From a virus (taxonomy: Duplodnaviria; Heunggongvirae; Uroviricota; Caudoviricetes), in IMG/VR virus record IMGVR_UViG_3300028534_000514, positions 64,001 through 128,000 of that record: DNA of 64,000 nucleotides; one strand, given 5' to 3'. Below, piece by piece: positions 51-54,060 of the stretch. The position numbers were made by a program, and so were the translations under genes. Each line of letters begins with the position of its first letter. The stretch's first letter is position 1. The notes under the pieces are model-generated. The model was given only the letters and a program-made list of their open reading frames with translations, searched no databases and was not told where the DNA came from.

Positions 51-3000
51 ATGGGAAGAATAATTTTAAAGAATTCAAATGGGGTGGATAAAGAGCCTCA
101 GCTGGCGGATTTAGAGCTTGGTGAAATAGCTGTAAACACAGTAGCCGGCACAATTTATACAAAAATGGCAACAACAAGCGGTGACCTGGTTGGAAGTACT
201 GAGTTCCAAAATGTTTATAATGTTACGCCACAGCCGGTTTTTACAGTTCCTACATCGGCTGTCGAAGGACAAATAGTAGATGTAAATATTACTAATTATA
301 ATGCCAGCAATATTTATGGCGTTAGTATTACAGGTGGAAGTTTGGATACATCAAGCAATCCATTTAAATGGACATTGCCAGCTGTAACACAGACTACATC
401 TTATGGAATAAGCATCAGTGCTCAAGAGCCTGGAAAATTAGAGAGTAAACCAACGCCTTACCAATGGTGTTCAGTCTCTAATGTTGTCGGTACAGCAGAT
501 GATAGTATTATTTTGAATAGTACTAATATTGATACGACAACTGTTCCTACATTGACTAATGCTAGTATTGTTAATGGAACTATTATTGCAGATGCTGATA
601 ATATTACAGCAGAAACACAAGAGTTCGAACAAGAAGCAACAGATAACGATTGGGCAACCTATAAACAATCGGTCCAAGTACTTCATAATGATATTATTTC
701 GGATCATAGTCAAGAACTGAGTTCACTTGCAGAAATAAAAGTAGCGGCTGATACACCAATTAGCACAAATGATATTGTATATACTAAACAAGAAGGTGTT
801 ATTAAGACTGTTCAAGTTGGAAATGTGTCAGAGCCAGAAATTCTTTTCCCTGCCGAGGAAATTGCCGCTGGAGATGATCATTCACTTATTCTAGTTGATG
901 GCAAAATCAAAAAGAATGGTGTTTTTAATTATAATGTTGAAAGTATTTCTGATGTTAAAAGTATAACTTGTACTAACTATTCCCAAACAGCATTATGTAT
1001 TAAAAAGGATGGCAGCGTATGGGGAATTGGAAAAAATAGGCAGGGTCAACTTGGATTAGGAGATACGGATGAAAGAATCGATTGGACATATTTAGGATTC
1101 TCTGCGAAAAAAATATCAGGGGGAAGAGATTTCTTTGTAGTTATTAAGGAGGATGATACTGTTTGGTCGTGTGGACGCAATTATTATAGTCAACTTGGTT
1201 TAGGGGATAGTACTGATAGAAATGTATTTACTGATACAGGCCTTACTGCAAAGGATGTATCTTGCGGGTATGAACATACGATTATTATAGATATGAATGA
1301 TAATATATTAGCATGTGGTAACAATGATTCTGGAAGATTGGGAGTTGGTGATTCTAATGGTAGAACTACTTTTACAAGTACTGGCGTAACCGGCAAAAAA
1401 GTTGTTGCAGGATATAGCATGTCCATTCTTATAAAATTAGATGGCACCCTTTGGGCCACAGGATACAATTATTATGGAGAACTTGGTTTAGGGGATACTG
1501 ATAGTAGAAATTCTTTTACTGATATTGGTTTAGAAAATGTCGAAGATATTGGACTAAGCTCATATTCTTCCTATTGTATTATAAATTCTATTATATATTC
1601 ATGCGGAAGAAATAATTATGGACAACTCGGTTTAGGGGATACCACTGATAGAAATGTATTTACTGATACCAGTGTAGTTTCTCAAAAATTAGCCAGTGTA
1701 AATAATGCTATGTATATAATGAGCATAAATTCAAATGGTGAAGTATACGGCGCCGGACGAAATAATTATGATCAACTCGGGATCGGTGATACTAATAACA
1801 GAAGTTCTTTTACAAAAGCAGTAATGTCTGAACACCAAGCAAAAACTCTTTCGAACTTTACTCCGTCATTAACAGATGGAATTGATTTCGTTGAATACAG
1901 TATTCCCCAAAGAACAGATTCTATAGCTGTTGGCGACCATTCTTTAAGAATAGATGACAACGGAAAATTATGGGCTAGGGGTCATAATAATTATGGTCAA
2001 CTTGGGTTAAATGATACTACTGATAGAACTGATTGGACCGATACAGGGATAACTGATGTTAAAAGCGTTGCTATCGGCGGCAGTCATTCAGTAATTTTAA
2101 AAAATGACGGTAGTGTTTGGGTTTGTGGAGATAATTATAGCGGGCAATTGGGAACAGGTAATACAACTGATAGTTATGTTTTTATTGATACAGGTCTAAC
2201 AGGTAAAAAAATAGCGGTAGGAGGAAATAATTCCTTTATTATTAAAGATGATAATTCCCTTTGGGGGTGTGGTGAAAATTCATACGGACAGCTGGGTATT
2301 GGATCAACTTCGGATGTCCTGAGTTTCGTTAAATTAAAGGAGAACGTTGTTGAAGTTAATGCCAGTTATGATCATACTGTAATTATTCTCGAAGATGGCT
2401 ATGTTTATACTACGGGAAGTAATGCCGACGGAAAACTTGGTCTTGGGGACACATCCGCAAGAAATGTATTCACCCGGACAAATAAAAAAGCTAAGAAAAT
2501 TGCTTCGGGGAGCAGACAAACTTTAATAATTGATCAAAATGATGAAGTTTGGAGTTGTGGGGATAACGCCTATGGTCAACTTGGATTAGGGGATAATGAC
2601 GATAGATATACCTTTACTCCGGTTCCGGGACCATTATATGCTTCCGATATCCAATGTGGAGATTCATTTAGTTTTATTATAGAGAAGGATACCAATAAAG
2701 TTTATTCGTGTGGTTATAATGCCTATGGTCAACTTGGATTGGGGGACACCACCGATAGAAATGTATTTACAGATACAGGAGAAATTGCTTCATATATCGC
2801 TTTTTTAGGTTCTACTCAAAACTCTGTTGCAATACAATATGCAGATAATACTTATAAGGTATGTGGTTCTAACGCTTATTACCAACTAAATAATACGAGC
2901 ACCTCAAGTATATCGTCTTTCGTTGATCCTGATTCAACAACATATACCAATCAAACACCAATAAGTAACGAACTAGTTACACAGCCAAGTTACTTTCAGT

Positions 3001-3242
3001 TTCCAGAATGGATGTATGTTCAATCATTAAAATCATATGTTTCATTGGAAGCAAGTTCAGGTGCTCCGAACTATATTGAAAGTACTATTGAAGGCACACC
3101 AGTAGAAATAGCGGGCGGCCTAAAATATAGTTATAATATTGTAACGCCAGCTTCTTCAGGTAGATATCTTCAAATGAAGGTAGAAGGACTTAAAGAAGAT
3201 GAAAAAGTTATTGAAATCAGAGCAGATTTAGAAACTACTTAA
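51..3242 (+). CDS. RCC1/BLIP-II repeat beta-propeller virion fibre or receptor-binding protein
   Basis: Many GxNxYGQLGLGDT repeats; N-terminal LELGEIAVNT resembles the Mtd-N/fibre anchor motif. Confidence 0.85.
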   Translation: MGRIILKNSNGVDKEPQLADLELGEIAVNTVAGTIYTKMATTSGDLVGSTEFQNVYNVTPQPVFTVPTSAVEGQIVDVNITNYNASNIYGVSITGGSLDTSSNPFKWTLPAVTQTTSYGISISAQEPGKLESKPTPYQWCSVSNVVGTADDSIILNSTNIDTTTVPTLTNASIVNGTIIADADNITAETQEFEQEATDNDWATYKQSVQVLHNDIISDHSQELSSLAEIKVAADTPISTNDIVYTKQEGVIKTVQVGNVSEPEILFPAEEIAAGDDHSLILVDGKIKKNGVFNYNVESISDVKSITCTNYSQTALCIKKDGSVWGIGKNRQGQLGLGDTDERIDWTYLGFSAKKISGGRDFFVVIKEDDTVWSCGRNYYSQLGLGDSTDRNVFTDTGLTAKDVSCGYEHTIIIDMNDNILACGNNDSGRLGVGDSNGRTTFTSTGVTGKKVVAGYSMSILIKLDGTLWATGYNYYGELGLGDTDSRNSFTDIGLENVEDIGLSSYSSYCIINSIIYSCGRNNYGQLGLGDTTDRNVFTDTSVVSQKLASVNNAMYIMSINSNGEVYGAGRNNYDQLGIGDTNNRSSFTKAVMSEHQAKTLSNFTPSLTDGIDFVEYSIPQRTDSIAVGDHSLRIDDNGKLWARGHNNYGQLGLNDTTDRTDWTDTGITDVKSVAIGGSHSVILKNDGSVWVCGDNYSGQLGTGNTTDSYVFIDTGLTGKKIAVGGNNSFIIKDDNSLWGCGENSYGQLGIGSTSDVLSFVKLKENVVEVNASYDHTVIILEDGYVYTTGSNADGKLGLGDTSARNVFTRTNKKAKKIASGSRQTLIIDQNDEVWSCGDNAYGQLGLGDNDDRYTFTPVPGPLYASDIQCGDSFSFIIEKDTNKVYSCGYNAYGQLGLGDTTDRNVFTDTGEIASYIAFLGSTQNSVAIQYADNTYKVCGSNAYYQLNNTSTSSISSFVDPDSTTYTNQTPISNELVTQPSYFQFPEWMYVQSLKSYVSLEASSGAPNYIESTIEGTPVEIAGGLKYSYNIVTPASSGRYLQMKVEGLKEDEKVIEIRADLETT

Positions 3243-3245
3243 TTT

Positions 3246-3279
3246 AAAATACGAGGAGAATCTCCTCGTATTTTCATGT
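3246..3279 (+). terminator. Hairpin terminator
   Basis: AAAATACGAGGAGA-A-TCTCCTCGTATTTT then CATGT, immediately after the stop codon. Confidence 0.8.
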
Positions 3280-3301
3280 TCTTAAAAAATTATTAAGGTT
3301 T

Positions 3302-3313
3302 AACAAAGAAGTA
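3302..3313 (+). promoter_or_regulatory. Putative late promoter AACA-N6-TA
   Basis: AACAaagaagTA; the same motif recurs upstream of many + strand genes. Confidence 0.55.
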
Positions 3314-3341
3314 TAATAATTAACTAATTGAAGGATAAAAA

Positions 3342-4358
3342 ATGAGTGAAATAAAAGATTTTAAACTTGATGAAAATAAAAATGATTTTATCATCGGAGT
3401 TCTGCCAGATAAACCGGATGAAAGAGATTATGTATTTGTGCCAAAAGCTTCTAGGGAATTGGTGGAATTACCAACTTCTGTTGATTTGAGAAAATATGAT
3501 ACCGAAATTGAAGACCAAAAAACTACAGGTAGTTGTGTTGCGAATGCAGCATGTTCTGCTCTTGAGTTGATGACGGCTGAAAAAGGGACAATCTCAGATT
3601 TATCAAGATTGTTTGTTTATTGGAATGTGCGTGAACATTACTCTTATCTTCGTGGAAAAGATAATGGCTCTTATTTGAGAGATGCATTTAAATCCATAAA
3701 TAAACAAGGAGTCCCTGAAGAAAAAGATTGGGAATTTGATGTTTCGAAAGTAAATGTTAAGCCGCCTCAAGAAGTTTATGAAAAAGCGAAGAATAATAAA
3801 GTTATTGAATATCGCCGTATTAATAAAAGAGATATAGAGAAGATTAAAGCTGCTCTTTACGAAGGACATCCAGTTATCTTTAGTACCGCTCTAGGATCTA
3901 AATTCTTTGGTTTGTCGAAACCACTAATTTCCCAGAAATATGAGAGAGTAAATCGTACTGATAATAAACTTGTTGGATACCACGCAATGAATATAGTAGG
4001 GTATGATGATACAAAACAAGCCTTTATTGTCGAAAATTCATGGGGGACCTCCTGGGGTGATAATGGATTCTGTCTTTTTCCATATGATGTCCTAACCAAA
4101 GATGGTTTAGATTTATGGGTCTGTACAAAATTCCAATTCAAAGGTGATGTTATTGAACCAGAGCCTAAACCAGAGCCTAAACCAGAGCCTAAACCAGAGC
4201 CTAAGCCAGAGCCTAAGCCAGATACAGTAACAGAAATTTTCACGGAAGCTGAAATAAAAATTATAAAAAATGCTATGAGCTTCCTTAAGCTTCTTGATAA
4301 AGAAACAACTCGAATCTTTAAACAAGTAATAGAGTTCTTTAAATCTTTTAAGGGGTAA
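3342..4358 (+). CDS. Papain-like (C1) cysteine peptidase with a PEPK linker
   Basis: QKTTGSCVANA (Gln/Cys), YHAMNIVGY (His), ENSWG (Asn). Confidence 0.9.
   Translation: MSEIKDFKLDENKNDFIIGVLPDKPDERDYVFVPKASRELVELPTSVDLRKYDTEIEDQKTTGSCVANAACSALELMTAEKGTISDLSRLFVYWNVREHYSYLRGKDNGSYLRDAFKSINKQGVPEEKDWEFDVSKVNVKPPQEVYEKAKNNKVIEYRRINKRDIEKIKAALYEGHPVIFSTALGSKFFGLSKPLISQKYERVNRTDNKLVGYHAMNIVGYDDTKQAFIVENSWGTSWGDNGFCLFPYDVLTKDGLDLWVCTKFQFKGDVIEPEPKPEPKPEPKPEPKPEPKPDTVTEIFTEAEIKIIKNAMSFLKLLDKETTRIFKQVIEFFKSFKG
4155..4221 (+). repeat. 12-bp tandem repeat encoding (PEPK)n
   Basis: ccagagcctaaa / ccagagcctaag, about 5 copies. Confidence 0.9.
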
Positions 4359-4361
4359 AAA

Positions 4362-4700
4362 ATGCCTTCTGAAAATGATAGATTAGATGATGATATTAGA
4401 GAGCTCCGTCGTAAACAGACGGAGCAGCACAATGAGATTATGCATATCAAAGAACTTATTAGCAATCTCGCTAATGTTCAAAAAAATACTACAGAAAATA
4501 TTAATGTTTTAACATCTGACATAAAAGAAATTTTAAAACATTCTTTGACATACGAGATAGTTGAAAAAGAAATGGTTATGCTCAATAGACGAATTGAGAA
4601 TTTAGAAGAAAGTCGCAGCTGGACATTAAAGTTAATTGTCGGAGCTGTAATAATGGGATTAATAGGGTTGGTGTTAGACTATAAAGCTATTTCAAAATAA
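4362..4700 (+). CDS. Coiled-coil protein with a C-terminal TM helix (XhlA/holin-like)
   Basis: Heptad-like region, then WTLKLIVGAVIMGLIGLVL; lies in the lysis cluster. Confidence 0.55.
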   Translation: MPSENDRLDDDIRELRRKQTEQHNEIMHIKELISNLANVQKNTTENINVLTSDIKEILKHSLTYEIVEKEMVMLNRRIENLEESRSWTLKLIVGAVIMGLIGLVLDYKAISK

Positions 4701-4710
4701 GGGATGGAAT

Positions 4711-5289
4711 ATGACAAGATTATATAAAGGATTACCGTTTATTTCATGGAACCCTAAAGAGAACAATAAAATAAAAATTGAAAAGATTTTTTTTCCTTTT
4801 GGTCAATTTTTTCCATTATATTTAAAAACGTATTTATTTGAAGAGCAAAAAACTTCTTTAGATAAATACAATAAAAGTGTAATAGAGGAACTCAAAAACC
4901 ATGGTGAACTTGAGGTTAAAGATGATTTAGTTTTTATTAGACATACCGGAAGATATCTTGGTAAGATACGAGAAGTAGCTCGCTTTATTTTAGACAATAA
5001 TCTAATTTCAATTGATGTTGTTTCAACCGGGTGTCATCTGACTCAAACTAAATTAACTCCTTGTGAAAAAGCAATTATAGGATTCAATCATTTGACAAGA
5101 ACATGGCTAGCAATGATTGATGGAGAAGTAATTCGTGCATCTATTGGCGACGAAATTTTCCTAGTCCGAGAAAATCTAACTATTAAACTATCGACATCTT
5201 TAGATGCCAGAAAAATTATAGAGATTTTTGCAATTGGGAAAATAAATTCGATTAAAATTAATGGAAAGGTAGGACGTGTGCATGATTAA
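4711..5289 (+). CDS. Hypothetical protein
   Basis: 192-aa ORF with RBS, operonic spacing. Confidence 0.6.
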   Translation: MTRLYKGLPFISWNPKENNKIKIEKIFFPFGQFFPLYLKTYLFEEQKTSLDKYNKSVIEELKNHGELEVKDDLVFIRHTGRYLGKIREVARFILDNNLISIDVVSTGCHLTQTKLTPCEKAIIGFNHLTRTWLAMIDGEVIRASIGDEIFLVRENLTIKLSTSLDARKIIEIFAIGKINSIKINGKVGRVHD

Positions 5290-7977: not shown

Positions 7978-10900
7978 ATGAAACGAAATCCTTTATATGT
8001 CTTTAAGAACGAGGATACTATTGGTGTCTTTGATGTACCATTACATTCTGTAATACAGATTCTTGAAACAAGAAATAATAGAGTACTTGTTGTAGAAATA
8101 ATTAATAAAACTGGTCTTACTCCTGCCTCAACCATCAGAGATTTACTAGATAATCAAAGTCTTTATACTGTTCTTTCTGATGGAACCGGGGGTGGTGAAT
8201 TAGCAAAATATGTTGAAAACAATAAAACTGGTTATAAATTATGGGATGCAAATCTTGATTATTATGGCCCACTTGGACAAAATTCGGTTGATTTTAGTTT
8301 CCAACCCCCAATCCCTAATGGAATAGGCGGGACTACCGGGGATAATTCTTTTGCTGTCGGATATGGGACCATTTCAGAAGGTCTTTCTTCTTTTTCTTCA
8401 GGGAGAGAAACTATCGCGAGTGGAAGACAATCGTCATCTTTTGGTTTAAAAACAAAAGCTTCAGGTGAACAATCTTTCGCAGCGGGTTATGCCTCGGAAG
8501 CAACTGGCAAAAATGCTGTAGTTTTCGGTAATCTTAATAAGGCTCTTGGTGAAAATTCTTTTGTCGAAGGTCATGAAAATATGGCTGGTGGGTTCGCAGC
8601 TCATGCTGAGGGTGGTCGTAATAATGCGGGAGGAAACTTCTCGCACGTTGAGGGTAGTCTTACTAAGACAACCGATATTAATGCACACGCCGAAGGTTAT
8701 AAAACAGAAGCCGGTAAAAATGCCCACTCGGAGGGGGCTGAAACAATGGCGTTGGGTCTTTCCTCACATTCAGAAGGATTAATTACTCAAGCCCTTGGTG
8801 TCGGTTCCCACTCTGAAGGGTATATGACAATCGCTGAAGGGGATTACTCTCATGCTGGCGGTGATACCACCAAAGCCTCTGGTGAAGCTAGTTTTGCAGT
8901 AGGTATGGGTTCCGAAACAAACGGTGATTATTCTTTTGCCGGAGGCCATAGTTGTATTTCGAACGGTAAGAGTTCGCTAGCGTTTGGTTTGGAGTGTGTA
9001 TCCAATGGTGAAAATGCAATCTCGTTAGGTTATGGAACCTCAGCAACAACCGATGAAGCATTTGCTATTGGGTATAAAACATTGGCTTCCGGTTTATCAA
9101 GTTTTGCTGGAGGGTATAAAACCCAGGCTATTGGTGTCCAATCTTTCGCGTTCGGTCAAAGTAATATAGCTGCCGGAAACTATTCAATTGCTATGGGTAA
9201 TAAAACTCAAGCATCTGCGGATGGATCGACAGCCTTTGGTTTAGAATCAGAAGCAACAGGCGAATATTCCTCAGTAGAAGGTGGGTATACAAAAACAACA
9301 TCGAATTATTCAAAAGCTATTGGTTTTTGGACAATAGCCCAAAATGATTCAATGCTGGCAGCTGGACGATACAATCTTCCAAAAACAGGAACCCTACTTG
9401 AAATAGGTTCTGGACTAGATTTAAATAACAGAAAAAATGCTTTTGAAATTGAAACATCTGGATTAGTATCTGCTCCTGATATGGTGTACATTGATTTTGA
9501 TAACCTTGTCGATGAAAATATTATTGTTAAAAAATCTCTATTAGAGCATACCGATATTTTAGCGAGTGAGCTCCGATCACAATTAGAAAAAATTATTGAA
9601 AATGGTAATGTTGGATATAGAATTTATGGTCGGGATCCAAATAAATTTGGGGATATTGGTCAGGATGCAATCGACTTAAGTTATACTACTGTTAATAATA
9701 ATGAGCTTGGTGCAACCGGCGATTATTCATTTACAACTAACGTTAATAATAAAGCGTCTGGCTTGCAATCATCCGCTTTTGGATTTGGAACGTCCGCTGA
9801 AAATGAAAATGCATTAGCGACAGGAACTCAAACTTCTGCAACTGGTGTAAATTCCGCTTCTTTTGGACAAGGAACAGAAGCTTCGAATGAAAACTCCACA
9901 ACCTTTGGTTTTTATACAAAATCTTCTGGAATAAATTCAATAGCTGCCGGTTACCAAACAGAGGTCTCCAGTGAAAATTCGTTTGCAACCGGTAATCTTA
10001 ATAAAATACTTGGAAATAATTCATTCGCCAGTGGTTCATCGAATACTATTGGTCTTGGAGGAACATCTGGCGCTATCGGATCAAATAATACAGTTAATGG
10101 TTCGGCGTCATTTACAAGTGGTCTTTCAAACATATTAAACGGAGACTATAATTTTGCTATCGGATTAAATAACAATCTTAATGATAATAACAATTTTATT
10201 ATCGGAACAGATAGTAATATAAATATAGATAATGCATTTGCTATTGGTAAAAATCTTGAAAATAATACAAGATATGCACTTGTAGTAGGGCGCTATAACC
10301 AAAATAACTCCGATAATATTTTTGAAATAGGAAATGGTTATTTAGATCAGACCGGACCTGTTCTTCAGAATGCACTTGAAGTTAATTTTGATGGGATGAT
10401 TTTTGCACCGACCATGGATAAGATGGAAATTGAAAATTCTACCAATGGCTCTATATTAATTACTCGAGAATTTTTTGATGAGCATCAGGGATATCTTGAG
10501 AGAATCACGGAGGGACCTGCTGGTTCGGAACGAACTGGCTATAGAATTAGATTTAGAGATCCTCAGTGGTATGGAAGAATAGGTGAAGAAGCTGTTGATT
10601 TAAGTTACAGTGAAGGCGAAGCTCTTGATTTTGGAGCAACTGGTGATTATTCTTTTGCTGTTGGTTATAAAACATCAGCTACCTCGGAATATTCAACTGC
10701 GTTAAACTTCAGTACAAAAGCTACTGATAAATTTACATTGGCAGTTAATCAGTGTTCAGAGGCAAGAGGTATGGGTGCAATGGCGAGCGGTTTTTGGACG
10801 CTAGCCAGTGGCTCTTTTTCACATGCAGAAGGTGTAAGTAAAAGAGATGAAACTAATGATACTACGGAATATACTGAAGCGCGAGGAAAAGGTTCGCATG

Positions 10901-28917: not shown

Positions 28918-28952
28918 TTAATATATTTATAGTTTTATGCTTTATTCTAAAG
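28918..28952 (-). promoter_or_regulatory. Putative early promoter CTTTAGAATA-N11-TATAAATATATTA
   Basis: Near-identical copies at 38540, 47704 and 54137, each heading a minus-strand unit. Confidence 0.75.
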
Positions 28953-36463: not shown

Positions 36464-37189
36464 ATGCCAGCAAAACTTGAAAGATGTGTTAAGCACGTGC
36501 TTGACCAAGGAAAAGATAAAAATTCGGCTTATGCAATATGCTCAAAATCTACAGGATGGGTAAAATCAGGTGCCCATAGTTGGAGAAAGAAAGCAAAAAC
36601 CAAATCAAAGAAATTAGAAGAGGTTTGCTCAAAAGGAGCAATTGCTCAAATAGAGCAATTGCTCGAGGAAACTGATTTTTTATCTAGATATAGGAATGGT
36701 GTTTATTCTAGTGTAAAGCTCGATCCAACAGCTTTAAAAAAACTTCAAAAATATTTTGAAACAGTTGGTATCAAAATGATGCCATTAAATAAAATTCATA
36801 TTACCGTAATCTATAGTCGCACCCGGCCAAATAAAGAACCAAACGCATTTGAAATTAATGGAAGTGTAACCCCAGTATCTTTTGGTATTTTTGGAAAGGG
36901 AACTAAAGATCAACCATATGCGTTGGTCCTGCAGGTGGATAGCCCGCAGTTAACTACCGCCCATATGAAAATGCGAAAGGAATATGGTTTAAAGCCGACA
37001 TATCCGGAATATAAACCACATATATCATTAACCTATGATATTCATCGAATTTTACCAGGAATTTCTAAACTTTCACAAAAACAAAAGGATACTATTATTA
37101 ATGTATTTAATAAGATGATTCCTGAATTGCCTAAAAACATTAGAATATTGAACCATACAGTTGAACCAATTAATTTAAATTGGAAGTAG
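36464..37189 (+). CDS. acb1: Acb1-like (T4 gp57B) 2H phosphoesterase, candidate anti-CBASS, with an N-terminal MPAKLERCV extension
   Basis: GVYSSVKL...KIHITVIYSR and YKPHISLTY 2H motifs in the Acb1 arrangement. Confidence 0.7.
   Translation: MPAKLERCVKHVLDQGKDKNSAYAICSKSTGWVKSGAHSWRKKAKTKSKKLEEVCSKGAIAQIEQLLEETDFLSRYRNGVYSSVKLDPTALKKLQKYFETVGIKMMPLNKIHITVIYSRTRPNKEPNAFEINGSVTPVSFGIFGKGTKDQPYALVLQVDSPQLTTAHMKMRKEYGLKPTYPEYKPHISLTYDIHRILPGISKLSQKQKDTIINVFNKMIPELPKNIRILNHTVEPINLNWK
36619..36669. repeat. GAGCAATTGCTC array, site E (inside the acb1-like CDS)
   Basis: GGTTTGCTC-AAAAG-GAGCAATTGCTC-AAATA-GAGCAATTGCTC-GAGGA. Confidence 0.9.
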
Positions 37190-37197
37190 GAAATAAA

Positions 37198-38163
37198 ATG
37201 ATATTTAAAATTTCAAAATGTACTTCCAGGATGGGAGACGGTCAAAAAGATAATGGATGGGCTTATAAAAAATGTATAGAAAAATATAAACCAATTGAGC
37301 CAATAGAAAAGGTAATACATGGGGCAAATCCAAATAAAGGATTACCCGAAATAAAACAAGATCTAATAAAAGGAAATAAAATGAACTTTAAACAGCGTTT
37401 AGTTGAAGAGGCATTTGAAGATTTTGGACAGAAATTGAAGTCCGGAATAGGAAGTGTTTATGCAAAAACGAAAGAATTCGCTGGAAATAATCCAGGGGTT
37501 GCCGCTGGTATAAGCGGTGCTGCCGCAGGAGCCCTCTATAATTATTTAAATGGTGGAGCCGAAGACTTACAACAGGAAAGAGTACAAGAACTTAATAATT
37601 ATATCGAAAAAGATTCGAATTCCGATTTATTTAACGCGAAGCATCTTTCAAAAGACGATTTTACAGATTTACGGGATAATTTTATACACTCAGCAGATTA
37701 TGACTCCTCTATTGGACCAATCCCAACACCTGTAAGTTGGATGTCTGGACAAACAGAAGATTTATATCCATTTACATCAAGAGGAGGACATCAAGAAAAT
37801 ATCCAGGAATGGATAAAAAAACATCCAGATATTAATATTGAAACTATTAAACAACCAGGCTTTGTTAGAAATGAGATGACTGTTGATGATTTTAAAATTA
37901 AACCTTATGGAAATAGCGATGACCAATATGCCGCTTACAGTGAAGAAAAGCTTAATAACATTAAAAATATGTCTCAGCCAGAAAAAGCAGCAGAGATAGA
38001 AAAAATTCCAGAACTTAAAACGAAAGTCGATGAGATGCGGAATGATATTGGTAATTCCACTAGAGATTCTTATTTACATTCTACTCTGGGCGGAGCAGCT
38101 CTTGGAGCAGGTGGAGTATTTGCTAAACGAAAATTAGATGAAAGAAAAGCTCAAGGGTATTAA
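37198..38163 (+). CDS. Hypothetical probable internal-virion protein; second strong in-frame start at 37381
   Basis: RBS before both 37198 and 37381; two Gly/Ala-rich hydrophobic segments. Confidence 0.6.
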   Translation: MIFKISKCTSRMGDGQKDNGWAYKKCIEKYKPIEPIEKVIHGANPNKGLPEIKQDLIKGNKMNFKQRLVEEAFEDFGQKLKSGIGSVYAKTKEFAGNNPGVAAGISGAAAGALYNYLNGGAEDLQQERVQELNNYIEKDSNSDLFNAKHLSKDDFTDLRDNFIHSADYDSSIGPIPTPVSWMSGQTEDLYPFTSRGGHQENIQEWIKKHPDINIETIKQPGFVRNEMTVDDFKIKPYGNSDDQYAAYSEEKLNNIKNMSQPEKAAEIEKIPELKTKVDEMRNDIGNSTRDSYLHSTLGGAALGAGGVFAKRKLDERKAQGY

Positions 38164-38208
38164 ACGGACTACTTTGGGTTTAATAAACATAAATGCAAAT
38201 AAAATTTT

Positions 38209-38240
38209 AATATATCCCCACGTGGGGATATATTCCTGTC
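38209..38240. terminator. Perfect-palindrome terminator with CCTGTC tail, between convergent units
   Basis: AATATATCCCCACGTGGGGATATATT-CCTGTC. Confidence 0.8.
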
Positions 38241-38257
38241 TTTAAAATTAAAGAGAT

Positions 38258-38534
38258 AAATAGGAACGCTGATCACTTCTCTCTCGGATCAGTAGAGCGG
38301 CTAATCATCTTAACTAGCTGTCACCCGATCTATCTCGGGGGTCATAGGGAATCGAACCCATGGTTGCACGAGCCATTCCTCGTGGTTCACGATATACACC
38401 AGTATATCCCGTCGGCCTTGCGACCCGGTTTGCCTTAACTCGGTTTCCTCGGTGCGGTACTCTCCCTGCTGTCCTGGGGAATCGAACCCCTTCGGTCTGG
38501 CGACCGGCATCTACCAGATGCACATTTCCTATTT
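38258..38534 (-). ncRNA. ~275-nt GC-rich structured RNA with two T-arm (GGGUUCGAUUCCC) modules
   Basis: 9-bp end-to-end stem AAAUAGGAA/UUCCUAUUU; T-arms at 38476-90 and 38347-59; promoter upstream, terminator downstream. Confidence 0.8.
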
Positions 38535-38539
38535 CATTA

Positions 38540-38574
38540 TTAATATATTTATAGTTTTAATTGCTATTCTAAAG
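38540..38574 (-). promoter_or_regulatory. Putative early promoter
   Basis: CTTTAGAATAGCAATTAAAACTATAAATATATTAA. Confidence 0.75.
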
Positions 38575-38583
38575 CAAAGAATT

Positions 38584-38595
38584 AACAAAGAATTA
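38584..38595 (+). promoter_or_regulatory. Putative late promoter of the terminase gene
   Basis: AACAaagaatTA. Confidence 0.55.
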
Positions 38596-38613
38596 ACAAT
38601 AAAGGACTAATAA

Positions 38614-40452
38614 ATGGAAATAAATTTAAAAGATAATAATATTATTGGCCCGGACGGCAAGCCAATAGATAAAGCTAAGGAATATTTGAAATGTAAATTA
38701 TCCCCTTTGTATTTTATCGAGAATTATTGTGCAGTACCTGTTTCCGGAGGTATGATACCAATCAAAGAATCTGAATTATGGAAATCAACCCCAAAATATA
38801 GACAGTTTATCAAAGCAATTCATGAGTGCGATGCCGTTGAAATGATGGCATCGCGCCAGCATGGTAAAACAACGACAGCTTTATTATATTACTTATGGGC
38901 GCTATTGTTTTACCCGAAACTTACTATCGAATACGTTACTCTCGATAGTAAAAGGGCAAACGATGCTGTTAAAAGAATGAAGGAAATGCTTGCTTATTTG
39001 CCAGCATGGCTTCAAATACCATTTAAAGGTAAATCTGAAAAAGTTACTTATTTGGAGCTGGAGAACGGATCTCGTATGAACTCTAACTATGTTAGTGGTA
39101 GTATTGACCCAGATAGGCTGGGAAGGGGTATGTCTGCACCATTGATCTATATTGATGAAACTGCTTTTATTCCGAAGATGGATATTGTATGGACAGCCAT
39201 GCAACCTGCTATTTCTGCAGCGAGAGTATTCGCAAAGCAAAATGGTTATCCAAATGGTATTCTATTTACAACAACACCAAATGGAGCTGGTACCAATTTT
39301 TTTTATAATGTATGGTCCCGAGGTTGGGATTCAAGTGAGGTATTTATTAATGATAGTATAAAATTTCAAGAAAATTGGGATGAACTTATTAATAGCGATG
39401 ATAACCGAAATAACTTTGTAAGATTTAAAATACATTGGTCAGAGACTAATAAAGACGAGGCTTGGTATAAACAGCAAATTAAAGAATTGAACTTTAATAT
39501 GAGAAAAGTTTCTCAGGAGCTTGACCTTGTATTTTTGGGTTCATCAAACGCCGTTTTCCCAGATGAAGTTCTAGAACTATTCGAACCAAAAGAAACTAAA
39601 AGTACAATAACTATGGCTTATGGCGAACAATTCAAGGTTGTAGATGATTTGGATCCAACACGATTATATCTGCTTGGTGTTGATACAGCCGCAAGTACAG
39701 GAGCCAAAGCTGACTTTAGTGCTATGGTACTTGTCGACGCTCAAACTGGAGAAGAGGTTGGTTCATGGCATGGTAAATTTTCGGTCGTAAAGAGATTTGC
39801 AGTCGTTGTTAAATCTCTAATACAGGGCCTTACAGAATTACACTCATTAACAGAGGATACCCTTCAGGTAATTATAGAGAGGAACTCCTTTGGTCTTGGA
39901 ACCATTGAAGAATTAATGTTCGATGATGGAGGATTTGATTATACTAGTTATTTATATCAAGAAGAATTGAAAAATAACGAAAGACGTCCAGGATTGCTAA
40001 CTAATGCCAAATCAAGAGATATGATGTTTAATTTATTATTAAGTGCTATAAATGAAATGCCTGAAAGAGCAAAAACTGCTCTTTTACAAGAGGAATTGCG
40101 AAATCTTGAACAAAAAAATAATGGACGATTCGAAGCAGTTCAGGGAGCCCATGACGATTCAATTATGGCCTACAATTTTTGTCTTTTTGTACGTCATGAA
40201 TTTATCGGCAAAGGTCTTATTGAAACTGATGGGCGGGTATCTATGTACGATCCACAGAAAGCAAATTATTTTCTGGATGTTACAATGTCGACCTCTGATC
40301 CGGGAATTTTCAAAGACCAAAAAGAATCAATTATACGAGTTATTAATAATGACGAAAAAGAGGATCGCAAACGTATCCTAACAGAAATGGGTTATGATTC
40401 AAAAACATATGAAGCTCTCCCTTCCCTCGATAATTATGTAATAGGGCTGTAA
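38614..40452 (+). CDS. terL: Terminase large subunit
   Basis: Walker A ASRQHGKTT, Walker B LIYIDETAF, TTTPNG, nuclease LGVDTA and HDDSIMA. Confidence 0.95.
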   Translation: MEINLKDNNIIGPDGKPIDKAKEYLKCKLSPLYFIENYCAVPVSGGMIPIKESELWKSTPKYRQFIKAIHECDAVEMMASRQHGKTTTALLYYLWALLFYPKLTIEYVTLDSKRANDAVKRMKEMLAYLPAWLQIPFKGKSEKVTYLELENGSRMNSNYVSGSIDPDRLGRGMSAPLIYIDETAFIPKMDIVWTAMQPAISAARVFAKQNGYPNGILFTTTPNGAGTNFFYNVWSRGWDSSEVFINDSIKFQENWDELINSDDNRNNFVRFKIHWSETNKDEAWYKQQIKELNFNMRKVSQELDLVFLGSSNAVFPDEVLELFEPKETKSTITMAYGEQFKVVDDLDPTRLYLLGVDTAASTGAKADFSAMVLVDAQTGEEVGSWHGKFSVVKRFAVVVKSLIQGLTELHSLTEDTLQVIIERNSFGLGTIEELMFDDGGFDYTSYLYQEELKNNERRPGLLTNAKSRDMMFNLLLSAINEMPERAKTALLQEELRNLEQKNNGRFEAVQGAHDDSIMAYNFCLFVRHEFIGKGLIETDGRVSMYDPQKANYFLDVTMSTSDPGIFKDQKESIIRVINNDEKEDRKRILTEMGYDSKTYEALPSLDNYVIGL

Positions 40453-47520: not shown

Positions 47521-47700
47521 AATATCTCCTTTTGAATTATGGGGACTTTAACCCTGTTCCAGCCGGCTTTTCAACCAGCGCTTTATAGCCGAGCCCGACC
47601 GCGGTTCGGGACTAGTTTTGGCGGGGAATAGAATTTACTATTCCCAGCTTGGGTCTTCACCCTACTCAAAGAGATCAAAAGAATATTTTGATTCCCTTCA
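47521..47700 (-). ncRNA. ~180-nt GC-rich multi-hairpin leader of the MYG1 gene
   Basis: Stems GGGAAUAG/CUAUUCCC, GGGU-GAAG-ACCC, CCCGA/UCGGG and GCUGGUU-GAAA-AGCCGGC. Confidence 0.6.
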
Positions 47701-53739: not shown

Positions 53740-54060
53740 TTGGTTCTAGGGCACTGTCGCCCAGACTTTTTAACGTGTTCAGTCACGCCCTCTTTCGAAT
53801 AAGGTGGGTCTTACACCTTATTACCAGTGGTTTCAAGCCACCACGCGGGTTTCCACAACTATCACCTATGAACTCTTTGAGCTTTCGGCGCTGGCGCTAT
53901 ACGATAGTTGGGACGCTTTGGGGATTTTTGACGTCCGCCCGCCCGTTATTAAAGACAATACGAAGTTAGTTGCCGATGAGACCATCTCATCGATACTTTT
54001 CTCCGTTTCTCTAACTTATCGGAGGTCTAAGGACCTTTGCCCGATTTTCGGAAAGAGAAT
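53740..54060 (-). ncRNA. ~320-nt GC-rich highly structured RNA
   Basis: Stems CGAUGAGA/UCUCAUCG, CAACUAUC/GAUAGUUG, AAUAAGGUG/CACCUUAUU, GUGGU/ACCAC, AGGUC/GACCU, GGGC/GCCC; AT-rich flanks. Confidence 0.7.

Follow-up and report, generated by a model that had tools for sequence, protein, structure and literature searches.

We conclude that the DNA upstream of the terminase gene terL in this phage very probably holds a functional noncoding RNA (ncRNA) gene, and that the two modules within its RNA are likely, if with less assurance, to be derived from tRNA and to fold as elbows. The combined statement that we favor, an ncRNA gene whose two tRNA-derived elbow modules act as a mimic of the tRNA shape, is put forward tentatively, and a mimic or decoy function, taken by itself, is possible but doubtful. 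Judged from its sequence, the RNA appears to be a well-defined and clearly constrained orphan, a tRNA-mimicking ncRNA that belongs to no catalogued RNA family. Transcription, the formation of the elbows, action in trans, and the identity of a partner are what we infer for it.

Genomic setting and transcription signals

The source is an uncultivated phage represented by a 281,455-bp IMG/VR virus record (33% GC), and the window, that is, the whole 64,000-nucleotide stretch of DNA that was analyzed, comprises bases 64001 to 128000 of that record. The core of the RNA occupies window positions 38258 to 38534 on the minus strand and coincides with a GC island (0.52 to 0.57, compared with about 0.33 genome-wide). 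It is flanked by a plus-strand gene (37180-38163) whose product has no assigned function and by terL, also on the plus strand (38614-40452; PF03237, E = 4e-11), which encodes a T4-type terminase. The RNA gene is thus convergent with the former and divergent from the latter. An Acb1-like 2H phosphoesterase gene (PF23474 at 1e-18, phrog_755) lies two genes upstream, and the stretch between it and terL is variable, with a different gene content in each relative examined.

This variable stretch (window 36464-38613 and the syntenic loci L184 to L186, L198, L201, and L214 to L216) can be described as a gene-turnover hot spot before terL. It holds one to five small genes, the set differing from relative to relative, and in one case includes an endolysin-like gene. 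In another relative (L145, positions 2501-4970; TerL 87% identical), terL itself is interrupted: its first 78 nucleotides occur twice, some 1 kb from each other, and an open reading frame (ORF) of 359 codons begins with the terL N terminus, which suggests an inserted element or an intein-like or homing insertion.

The RNA is preceded by a sequence that the preliminary description had called a conserved promoter, and this proves to be a true repeated motif. It has the pattern TTTAGAAT, a spacer of 10 to 13 nucleotides, and ACTATAAATATATTA, and there are about 15 full copies in the 281 kb, every one on the minus strand. Within the window, copies begin at 28952, 38574, 47738, and 54173. Copies of the motif also precede the four-gene tRNA cluster (8756-9646), each of two aberrant tRNA-like genes, and two other GC-rich untranslated stretches in the window, and the copy before the RNA is conserved in the relative L183. 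A scan for the sigma-70 consensus did not pick up the motif at 38541 to 38574. Transcription would start near 38537 to 38535. With its start at about 38537 and its end at the terminator (about 38205), the primary transcript would probably measure roughly 330 nucleotides, with a structured core of about 277 nucleotides. The terminator, which had also been noted before, has the form of a palindromic hairpin; it is called on the plus and the minus strand and serves the plus-strand gene at 37180 to 38163 as well. With its own promoter motif and terminator, and with its ORFs broken in L183 (see below), the locus bears out the earlier view of a stand-alone noncoding unit divergent from terL.

Most transcripts from the other copies of the motif would start with a local 5' hairpin; in the RNA studied here, those 5' positions pair instead with the far 3' end. 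The same leader of about 100 nucleotides (GTAGGAAACAACAG...) follows five of the motif copies. Further GC-rich untranslated islands stand behind the same or a similar motif (genome positions 270715-270966; window positions 47521-47700 and 53740-54060), and none of these three has an Rfam match. The phage seems to be rich in uncatalogued structured RNAs.

Structure of the RNA

The hairpins listed in the preliminary description, including the GCAA tetraloop and the three hairpins of the 3' domain, are all present at their minus-strand positions (Table 1). So is the closure of the GC-rich island (57% GC, compared with 33% in the genome) by a terminal helix of 9 bp. The helix is followed by AUC and, as had been noted, there is no CCA. 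Purine-rich single-stranded stretches are present in the RNA.

Table 1. Features of the RNA gene and changes in its copy in L183, in window coordinates
Feature	Position	Strand	Description
Promoter motif	38541-38574	minus	CTTTAGAAT box at 38574-38566 and ACTATAAATATATTA box at 38555-38541
Terminal helix P1, 5' strand, AAAUAGGAA	38526-38534	minus	Partner strand, 38266-38258; probabilities 0.54-1.0
Module 1 D-like hairpin, GCAUC-UGGUA-GAUGC	38507-38521	minus	Pair probability at least 0.99
Module 1 capped "anticodon-arm" stub, CGGUC-GCCA-GACCG	38493-38506	minus	4-nt loop; probability at least 0.96
Module 1 T-arm, GGGG-UUCGAUU-CCCC	38476-38490	minus	Full T-loop consensus; hairpin probability 0.12
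Central linker domain	38409-38475	minus	Contains GGGAGAG, GAGGAAA, and the GCAA hairpin; read from sequence
GCAA tetraloop hairpin (GNRA), GGUC-GCAA-GGCC	38414-38425	minus	Between the modules
Module 2 D-like hairpin, GAUAUAC-UGGU-GUAUAUC	38391-38408	minus	Probability at least 0.99
Module 2 middle hairpin, CACGAG-GAAUGG-CUCGUG	38367-38384	minus	6-nt loop; probability at least 0.94
Module 2 T-arm, GGG-UUCGAUU-CCC (38359-38347)	38343-38362 (extended)	minus	Up to 6 bp with one bulged U; hairpin probability 0.01 unconstrained
3' domain, three hairpins	38269-38339	minus	38339-38324, 38318-38300, and 38292-38269; purine-rich loop of 12 nt in the third
Terminal helix P1, 3' strand, UUCCUAUUU	38258-38266	minus	9-bp end-to-end closure; ensemble fold
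Palindromic hairpin terminator	38209-38234	both	11-bp stem, 4-nt loop; called on plus and minus
L183 change 1	38513	minus	First GG loop loses 1 nt, UGGUA to UGGA
L183 change 2	38474	minus	G to U in the linker, at a position with no partner in the two-elbow model; T1 is now followed by AUGAC, as T2 is
L183 change 3	38423	minus	U to C; a U-G pair becomes C-G in the GCAA hairpin

Both T-arm sequences of the RNA keep G53, U54, U55, C56, R57, A58, and C61 of the tRNA T-arm. The likeness goes beyond chance: the pattern GGTTCGAWTCC has five occurrences in 563 kb (both strands), of which three belong to tRNA genes and two to this RNA. In addition, the GCCA loop of module 1 is complementary to both UGGU loops (G-U, C-G, C-G, and A-U, as read from the sequence), which the preliminary description missed; the loops could kiss within one molecule or between two. 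UGGU would likewise complement the ACCA end of a tRNA.

The fold energy of the RNA is low for its composition (z = -2.34; 3 of 200 shuffled sequences were as good). In the unconstrained ensemble, pair probabilities range from 0.54 to 1.0 for P1 and for the D-like and middle hairpins of both modules, and the two T hairpins are weak in the nearest-neighbor model, for reasons considered below.

Conservation and distribution

Many metagenomic relatives of the TerL protein exist, and the DNA upstream of terL was compared in 12 of them (TerL 76 to 92% identical). The RNA is present in only one, L183 from JGI sample 3300033146, the closest (TerL 92%), as a partial copy because the contig ends inside module 2, at a point corresponding to 38369; the 3' domain (38269-38339) thus has no homologous sequence for comparison. 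In the other 11 (L145, L147, L184, L185, L186, L197, L198, L199, L214, L215, and L216; TerL 76 to 87%), the RNA is absent from the terL site, which is occupied by other protein genes or short unrelated spacers.

The two copies of the RNA differ at 3 sites over 169 shared positions (98% identity). In the same pair of genomes, the terL DNA is about 82% identical and the spacer just past the promoter 69%; at the terL rate of 17.6%, the probability of three or fewer differences is 5e-11. This pattern, from two genomes only, fits purifying selection on a structured RNA; a recent exchange of the cassette could be an alternative source of the high identity.

The collection of homologues proposed earlier thus yielded one, partial, and none among the further relatives searched. 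A covariance model (R1) built from the two near-identical copies, our own and that of L183, found no further copy in the phage's own genome, in the loci of 25 relatives, or in 26 IMG/VR records of relatives (TerL 32 to 56% identical) that were searched whole. No homologue was returned by blastn against 50,697 phage records, by nhmmer across the relatives' loci (beyond L183), by BLAST over three related virus records, or by pattern searches of viral contigs with a 31-mer, a 20-mer, two-T-loop patterns, and a stem-degenerate pattern for module 2. The matches to the two-T-loop pattern in viral contigs were tRNA arrays and were rejected as homologues. A descriptor search for modules lacking an anticodon matched mostly ordinary tRNAs, and a TerL search of genome contigs retrieved only a distant Clostridium metagenome-assembled genome. 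As all homologue searches beyond L183 came back empty, we regard the RNA as an accessory cassette, restricted to one lineage, within the variable stretch between the Acb1-like gene and terL.

Coding potential

It is unlikely, from the sequence comparison, that the region codes for protein. The 1-nucleotide deletion at 38513 and the G-to-U change at 38474 in L183 frameshift a 69-codon ORF and give a 66-codon ORF a stop codon, and both plus-strand ORFs over the RNA are likewise frameshifted. An arginine-rich frame of 53 codons is open in both copies, in L183 up to the end of the contig. By codon position, the GC content of this frame is 0.62/0.64/0.40, compared with about 0.47/0.34/0.25 in neighboring phage genes, and the 69-codon ORF that contains the frame has no protein relative among 5.8 billion plus 1.84 billion proteins, nor by exact look-up. 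We therefore reject coding, since the ORFs are broken in L183, the GC content by codon position is atypical, and protein relatives are lacking.

Proposed function and alternative explanations

Based on this inventory, we propose that an RNA of about 330 nucleotides would be transcribed independently, its core of about 277 nucleotides closed by the 9-bp helix. Each module would consist of a trimmed D-arm with a GG tetra- or pentaloop, a capped stem in the position of the anticodon arm, and a T-arm with the full consensus. The modules have no anticodon because their capped stems end in loops of 4 and 6 nucleotides. Each GG loop would dock on its own T-loop to form a tRNA-like elbow, and the RNA would act in trans as a stable mimic of the tRNA shape, neither decoding nor chargeable, with two binding sites. 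Such a mimic could work by binding, titrating, or recruiting some factor with specificity for the tRNA elbow or T-arm, for which the candidates would be a host tRNA-processing or tRNA-modifying enzyme, a tRNA-directed defense effector, or a ribosomal site.

Phage tRNAs counter tRNA-cleaving defenses, and bacterial Y RNAs illustrate that tRNA shape alone can serve as a functional signal. An unlikely extension of the tRNA-shape mimic would be a dedicated counter-defense or host-takeover RNA: a two-site decoy of the tRNA elbow, built from anticodon-less tRNA copies and driven by the promoter type of the phage tRNAs, that neutralizes a tRNA-directed immune effector or captures a tRNA-processing enzyme or the ribosomal tRNA site, as part of a wider, uncatalogued phage habit of making anticodon-less tRNA look-alikes. 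Two narrower roles that had been suggested fare less well. A decoy for anticodon nucleases is less attractive, and hard to reconcile with these modules, because such a nuclease would find no anticodon loop on them. It is also unlikely that the RNA takes part in packaging together with terL, because 11 relatives with the same terminase and the same terL neighborhood do without the RNA.

Certain features count against the tRNA-shape mimic. The RNA occurs as two near-identical copies, the second of them partial, and a recent cassette transfer could give the appearance of purifying selection. Both T stems are short (4 and 3 bp, not 5), the GG loops have 4 to 5 nucleotides (D-loops have 7 to 11), and acceptor stems are lacking: neither module has one of its own beside the T-arm, P1 stands in the acceptor position of module 1 on the 5' side only, and its 3' strand is about 210 nucleotides away from the T-arm of that module. 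The preference of the energy model for pairing between the two T-arms (T1:T2) belongs to the same account, as does the absence of Ro60/TROVE, RtcB, and CCA-adding enzyme genes from the phage genome.

An unlikely alternative, though the foremost of those we weighed, is that the RNA is a scaffold or processing cassette in which the tRNA-derived modules serve as stabilizing or processing handles and the active part lies elsewhere, for example in the purine-rich linker or in the 12-nucleotide loop at the 3'-most hairpin, and works through base pairing. The sequestering of the 5' and 3' ends in P1, comparable to the hairpins with which other transcripts driven by this motif begin, would suit such a cassette, as would the purine-rich single-stranded stretches. 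Parallels to the arrangement would be the tRNA-like termini of MALAT1/mascRNA, the tRNA-miRNA units found in murine gammaherpesvirus 68 (MHV68), and engineered tRNA scaffolds. However, RNase P and RNase Z require an acceptor-type helix, and none is stacked on either T-arm. Moreover, complementarity to the rest of the phage genome never exceeds 14 nucleotides, which is the chance level; antisense targets inside the phage genome were accordingly rejected, none standing above chance.

It is improbable, and somewhat more so, that the RNA has a different fold altogether, in which the two identical GGGUUCGAUUCCC segments pair as an imperfect long-range helix of 15 bp, the whole being a compact, multibranched, possibly self-associating ornate RNA whose tRNA likeness reflects ancestry only. 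The unconstrained minimum free energy structure does use this T1:T2 helix (-97.7 kcal/mol, compared with -94.9 kcal/mol for the two-elbow fold, a gap of 2.8 kcal/mol), and the T hairpins reach probabilities of only 0.12 (module 1) and 0.01 (module 2). Pairing between T1 and T2 needs identical stems, which separate T-arms do not, and the complementary GCCA and UGGU loops would also accord with an intricate fold. Yet the prediction is generic: pairing of this kind is open to any two identical T-arms that have UCGA at their center, and hence the energy model prefers the imperfect 15-bp helix. Because energy models leave out the tertiary contacts of T-loops and their modifications, the elbows are not refuted by this preference. 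One pair of the T1:T2 helix is lost through the L183 change at 38474, which is weak evidence against that helix. By the energy model, the duplex is a real alternative to two elbows. The preliminary description of two tRNA-elbow-like modules is thus upheld as regards the parts, which occur twice in the same order, and is left less secure as regards the formation of the T-arms, given stems of only 4 and 3 bp and a slightly more stable T1:T2 duplex.

Still less probable is a remnant of two decaying tRNA genes that no longer has a function, with the identity to L183 stemming from a recent exchange of the segment. The phage does have other aberrant tRNA-like genes, with anticodon loops of 8 and 6 nucleotides, and the RNA is missing from most relatives. 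Decay is difficult to square, however, with the retention of a complete promoter motif, of the terminator, and of a helix that closes the RNA end to end; with anticodon arms that are neatly capped and not degraded; with a GC content of 57% kept in a genome of 33%; and with a cassette that is 98% identical, compared with 69% just outside it.

Very improbable, in turn, is a role in cis, whereby the RNA is made against the plus-strand late genes and pairs or collides with read-through into terL, so as to time the expression of the terminase or insulate it. The geometry would permit this, as the RNA gene converges on the gene at 37180 to 38163, diverges from terL, and has a two-way terminator alongside, and terL directly abuts its upstream gene in relatives without the RNA. 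Such a role needs no T-loops, GG loops, or closing helix, however, and 11 relatives manage terL without the RNA. Weakest, and hardly credible, is a Y-RNA-like partner of a host Ro60/Rsr protein, whose Ro site would be the terminal helix and whose effector module would be the tRNA-like part: the terminal stem joining 5' and 3' ends and the order D, stub, T recall Deinococcus Yrn1 (PMC4201824), but the phage has no TROVE gene, the RNA matches no Y RNA or YrlA family in Rfam, and it has two modules and about 280 nucleotides, against 80 to 130.

If the tRNA-shape mimic is correct, the RNA would be a clean natural viral example of mimicry by shape only, dispensing with anticodon, acceptor end, and chargeability, and a partner, should one come to light, would lead to a host factor able to recognize the tRNA elbow. 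For now, practical value is limited, as the phage is uncultivated and the RNA is represented by two near-identical copies only.

Comparison with known RNA families

As the preliminary description had supposed, the RNA belongs to no known family by the searches made. None of the 4227 families of Rfam 15 matches anything in the window at gathering thresholds, and the rest of the genome yields five tRNAs only. When matches with E values up to 10 are admitted, module 2 aligns end to end with tRNA-Sec at a nonsignificant score (17.5 bits, E = 0.92), and the T-arm of module 1 matches 15 positions of a tmRNA model (9.4 bits). ARAGORN calls neither a tRNA nor a tmRNA at the locus, and no tmRNA in the whole genome. 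The RNA is not a tRNA, tmRNA, Y RNA, GOLLD, or ROOL.

Several other identities were considered and rejected. An attP site or integration remnant does not suit a locus with its own promoter and terminator, and there is no integrase among the surrounding genes examined; for a pac site or an origin, the T-loop content and the strand-specific signals fit an RNA better. A T-box, suggested by a GUACCGC resemblance, has no Rfam match. A packaging RNA of the phi29 type differs in that there is no match to the Rfam pRNA model here, the terminase is T4-type (PF03237), and 11 close relatives lack the RNA.

GOLLD and ROOL are large, ornate RNAs of phages and prophages, of about 580 to 800 nucleotides, with conserved folds of their own that are associated with tRNA genes, and the GOLLD linker sometimes contains tRNAs (bioRxiv 10.1101/2024.12.08.627333). 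The present RNA resembles them as a phage-borne, structured, apparently protein-free RNA without an assigned function. It differs in its length of about 280 nucleotides, in having no covariance-model match, and in lying 93 kb from the tRNA cluster. With regard to a homo-oligomeric cage, the one feature observed in its sequence is the complementarity of the GCCA and UGGU loops.

In MALAT1 mascRNA and the tRNA-miRNA units of MHV68, acceptor stems are cut by RNase P or RNase Z, in a eukaryotic or viral Pol III context. They share with the RNA the joining of non-decoding, tRNA-shaped elements to further hairpins, whereas in the RNA no acceptor stem adjoins either T-arm.

Y RNAs, a family that the preliminary description named for checking and that is unlikely here given the lack of a Ro60/TROVE gene, have 80 to 130 nucleotides and one tRNA-like domain, are encoded beside Ro60/Rsr, and carry the Ro60 site in a terminal stem; in YrlA the order is permuted (T, stem, D), and Deinococcus Yrn1 has a short "anticodon arm" with a 6-nucleotide loop (Chen et al. 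2014, PMC4201824). Our RNA is like YrlA and Yrn1 in that its 5' and 3' ends form a stem and its body mimics the D and T arms of tRNA, and it differs in its length (about 277 nucleotides), its two modules, and the lack of an Rsr gene nearby. A search of the 281-kb genome with PF05731 (TROVE) found nothing while its positive controls were detected, and the Rfam Y RNA and YrlA models gave no match even at E values up to 10.

Among genes related to tRNA metabolism, those for Ro60/TROVE, RtcB, and a CCA-adding enzyme are absent from the phage genome. There is one weak match to the RNA_ligase family (PF09414, 28 bits, just above the cutoff) in a 365-codon frame (genome positions 154656-155147, minus strand), which makes an RNA or tRNA repair function of the phage possible on sequence grounds.

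Two aberrant tRNA-like genes stand behind the same promoter motif (genome positions 216758-216831 and 277981-278052, minus strand). One has an 8-nucleotide anticodon loop (CUACAGAG) and scores 58 bits with the Rfam tRNA model; the other has a 6-nucleotide anticodon loop and a mismatched acceptor stem. Together with the RNA, they make three RNA genes of this phage whose "anticodon" loops are not 7 nucleotides long. Elsewhere, in tRNA-array loci of IMG/VR (L002 to L117), CAGCAA precedes the T-arm by at most 75 nucleotides in 31 of 261 T-arms outside ARAGORN tRNAs, compared with 3 of 500 inside them. Several "tRNAs" of 115 to 124 nucleotides there, such as those in L107 (669-792, minus strand) and L102 (5516-5634 and 5836-5952), have an insert of 40 to 50 nucleotides (a hairpin, ACAGCAA, and an AU-rich stretch) that replaces the anticodon arm. 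These sequences may represent a recurrent, uncatalogued class of phage tRNA-like genes.

Two further comparisons are with tmRNA and tRNA. tmRNA (RF00023) likewise joins a tRNA-like part to extra domains, whereas in the RNA the T-arms are internal and there is no alanine-type acceptor stem, CCA end, tag frame, or series of pseudoknots. From tRNA (RF00005), the RNA differs in its middle loops, GCCA (4 nucleotides) and GAAUGG (6 nucleotides) in place of a 7-nucleotide anticodon loop on a 5-bp stem; in lacking a 7-bp acceptor stem that runs on into the T stem, a discriminator, and a CCA; in enclosing two modules, with T stems of 3 to 4 bp, within one helix-closed RNA of 277 nucleotides; and in falling below both the RF00005 threshold (29 bits) and detection by ARAGORN. 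What it shares with tRNA is the set of T-arm invariants (G53, T54, Psi55, C56, R57, A58, and C61), the GG in the loop of the preceding hairpin, the order of D-arm, middle arm, and T-arm, and a promoter type common to the RNA and the phage's own tRNA genes.
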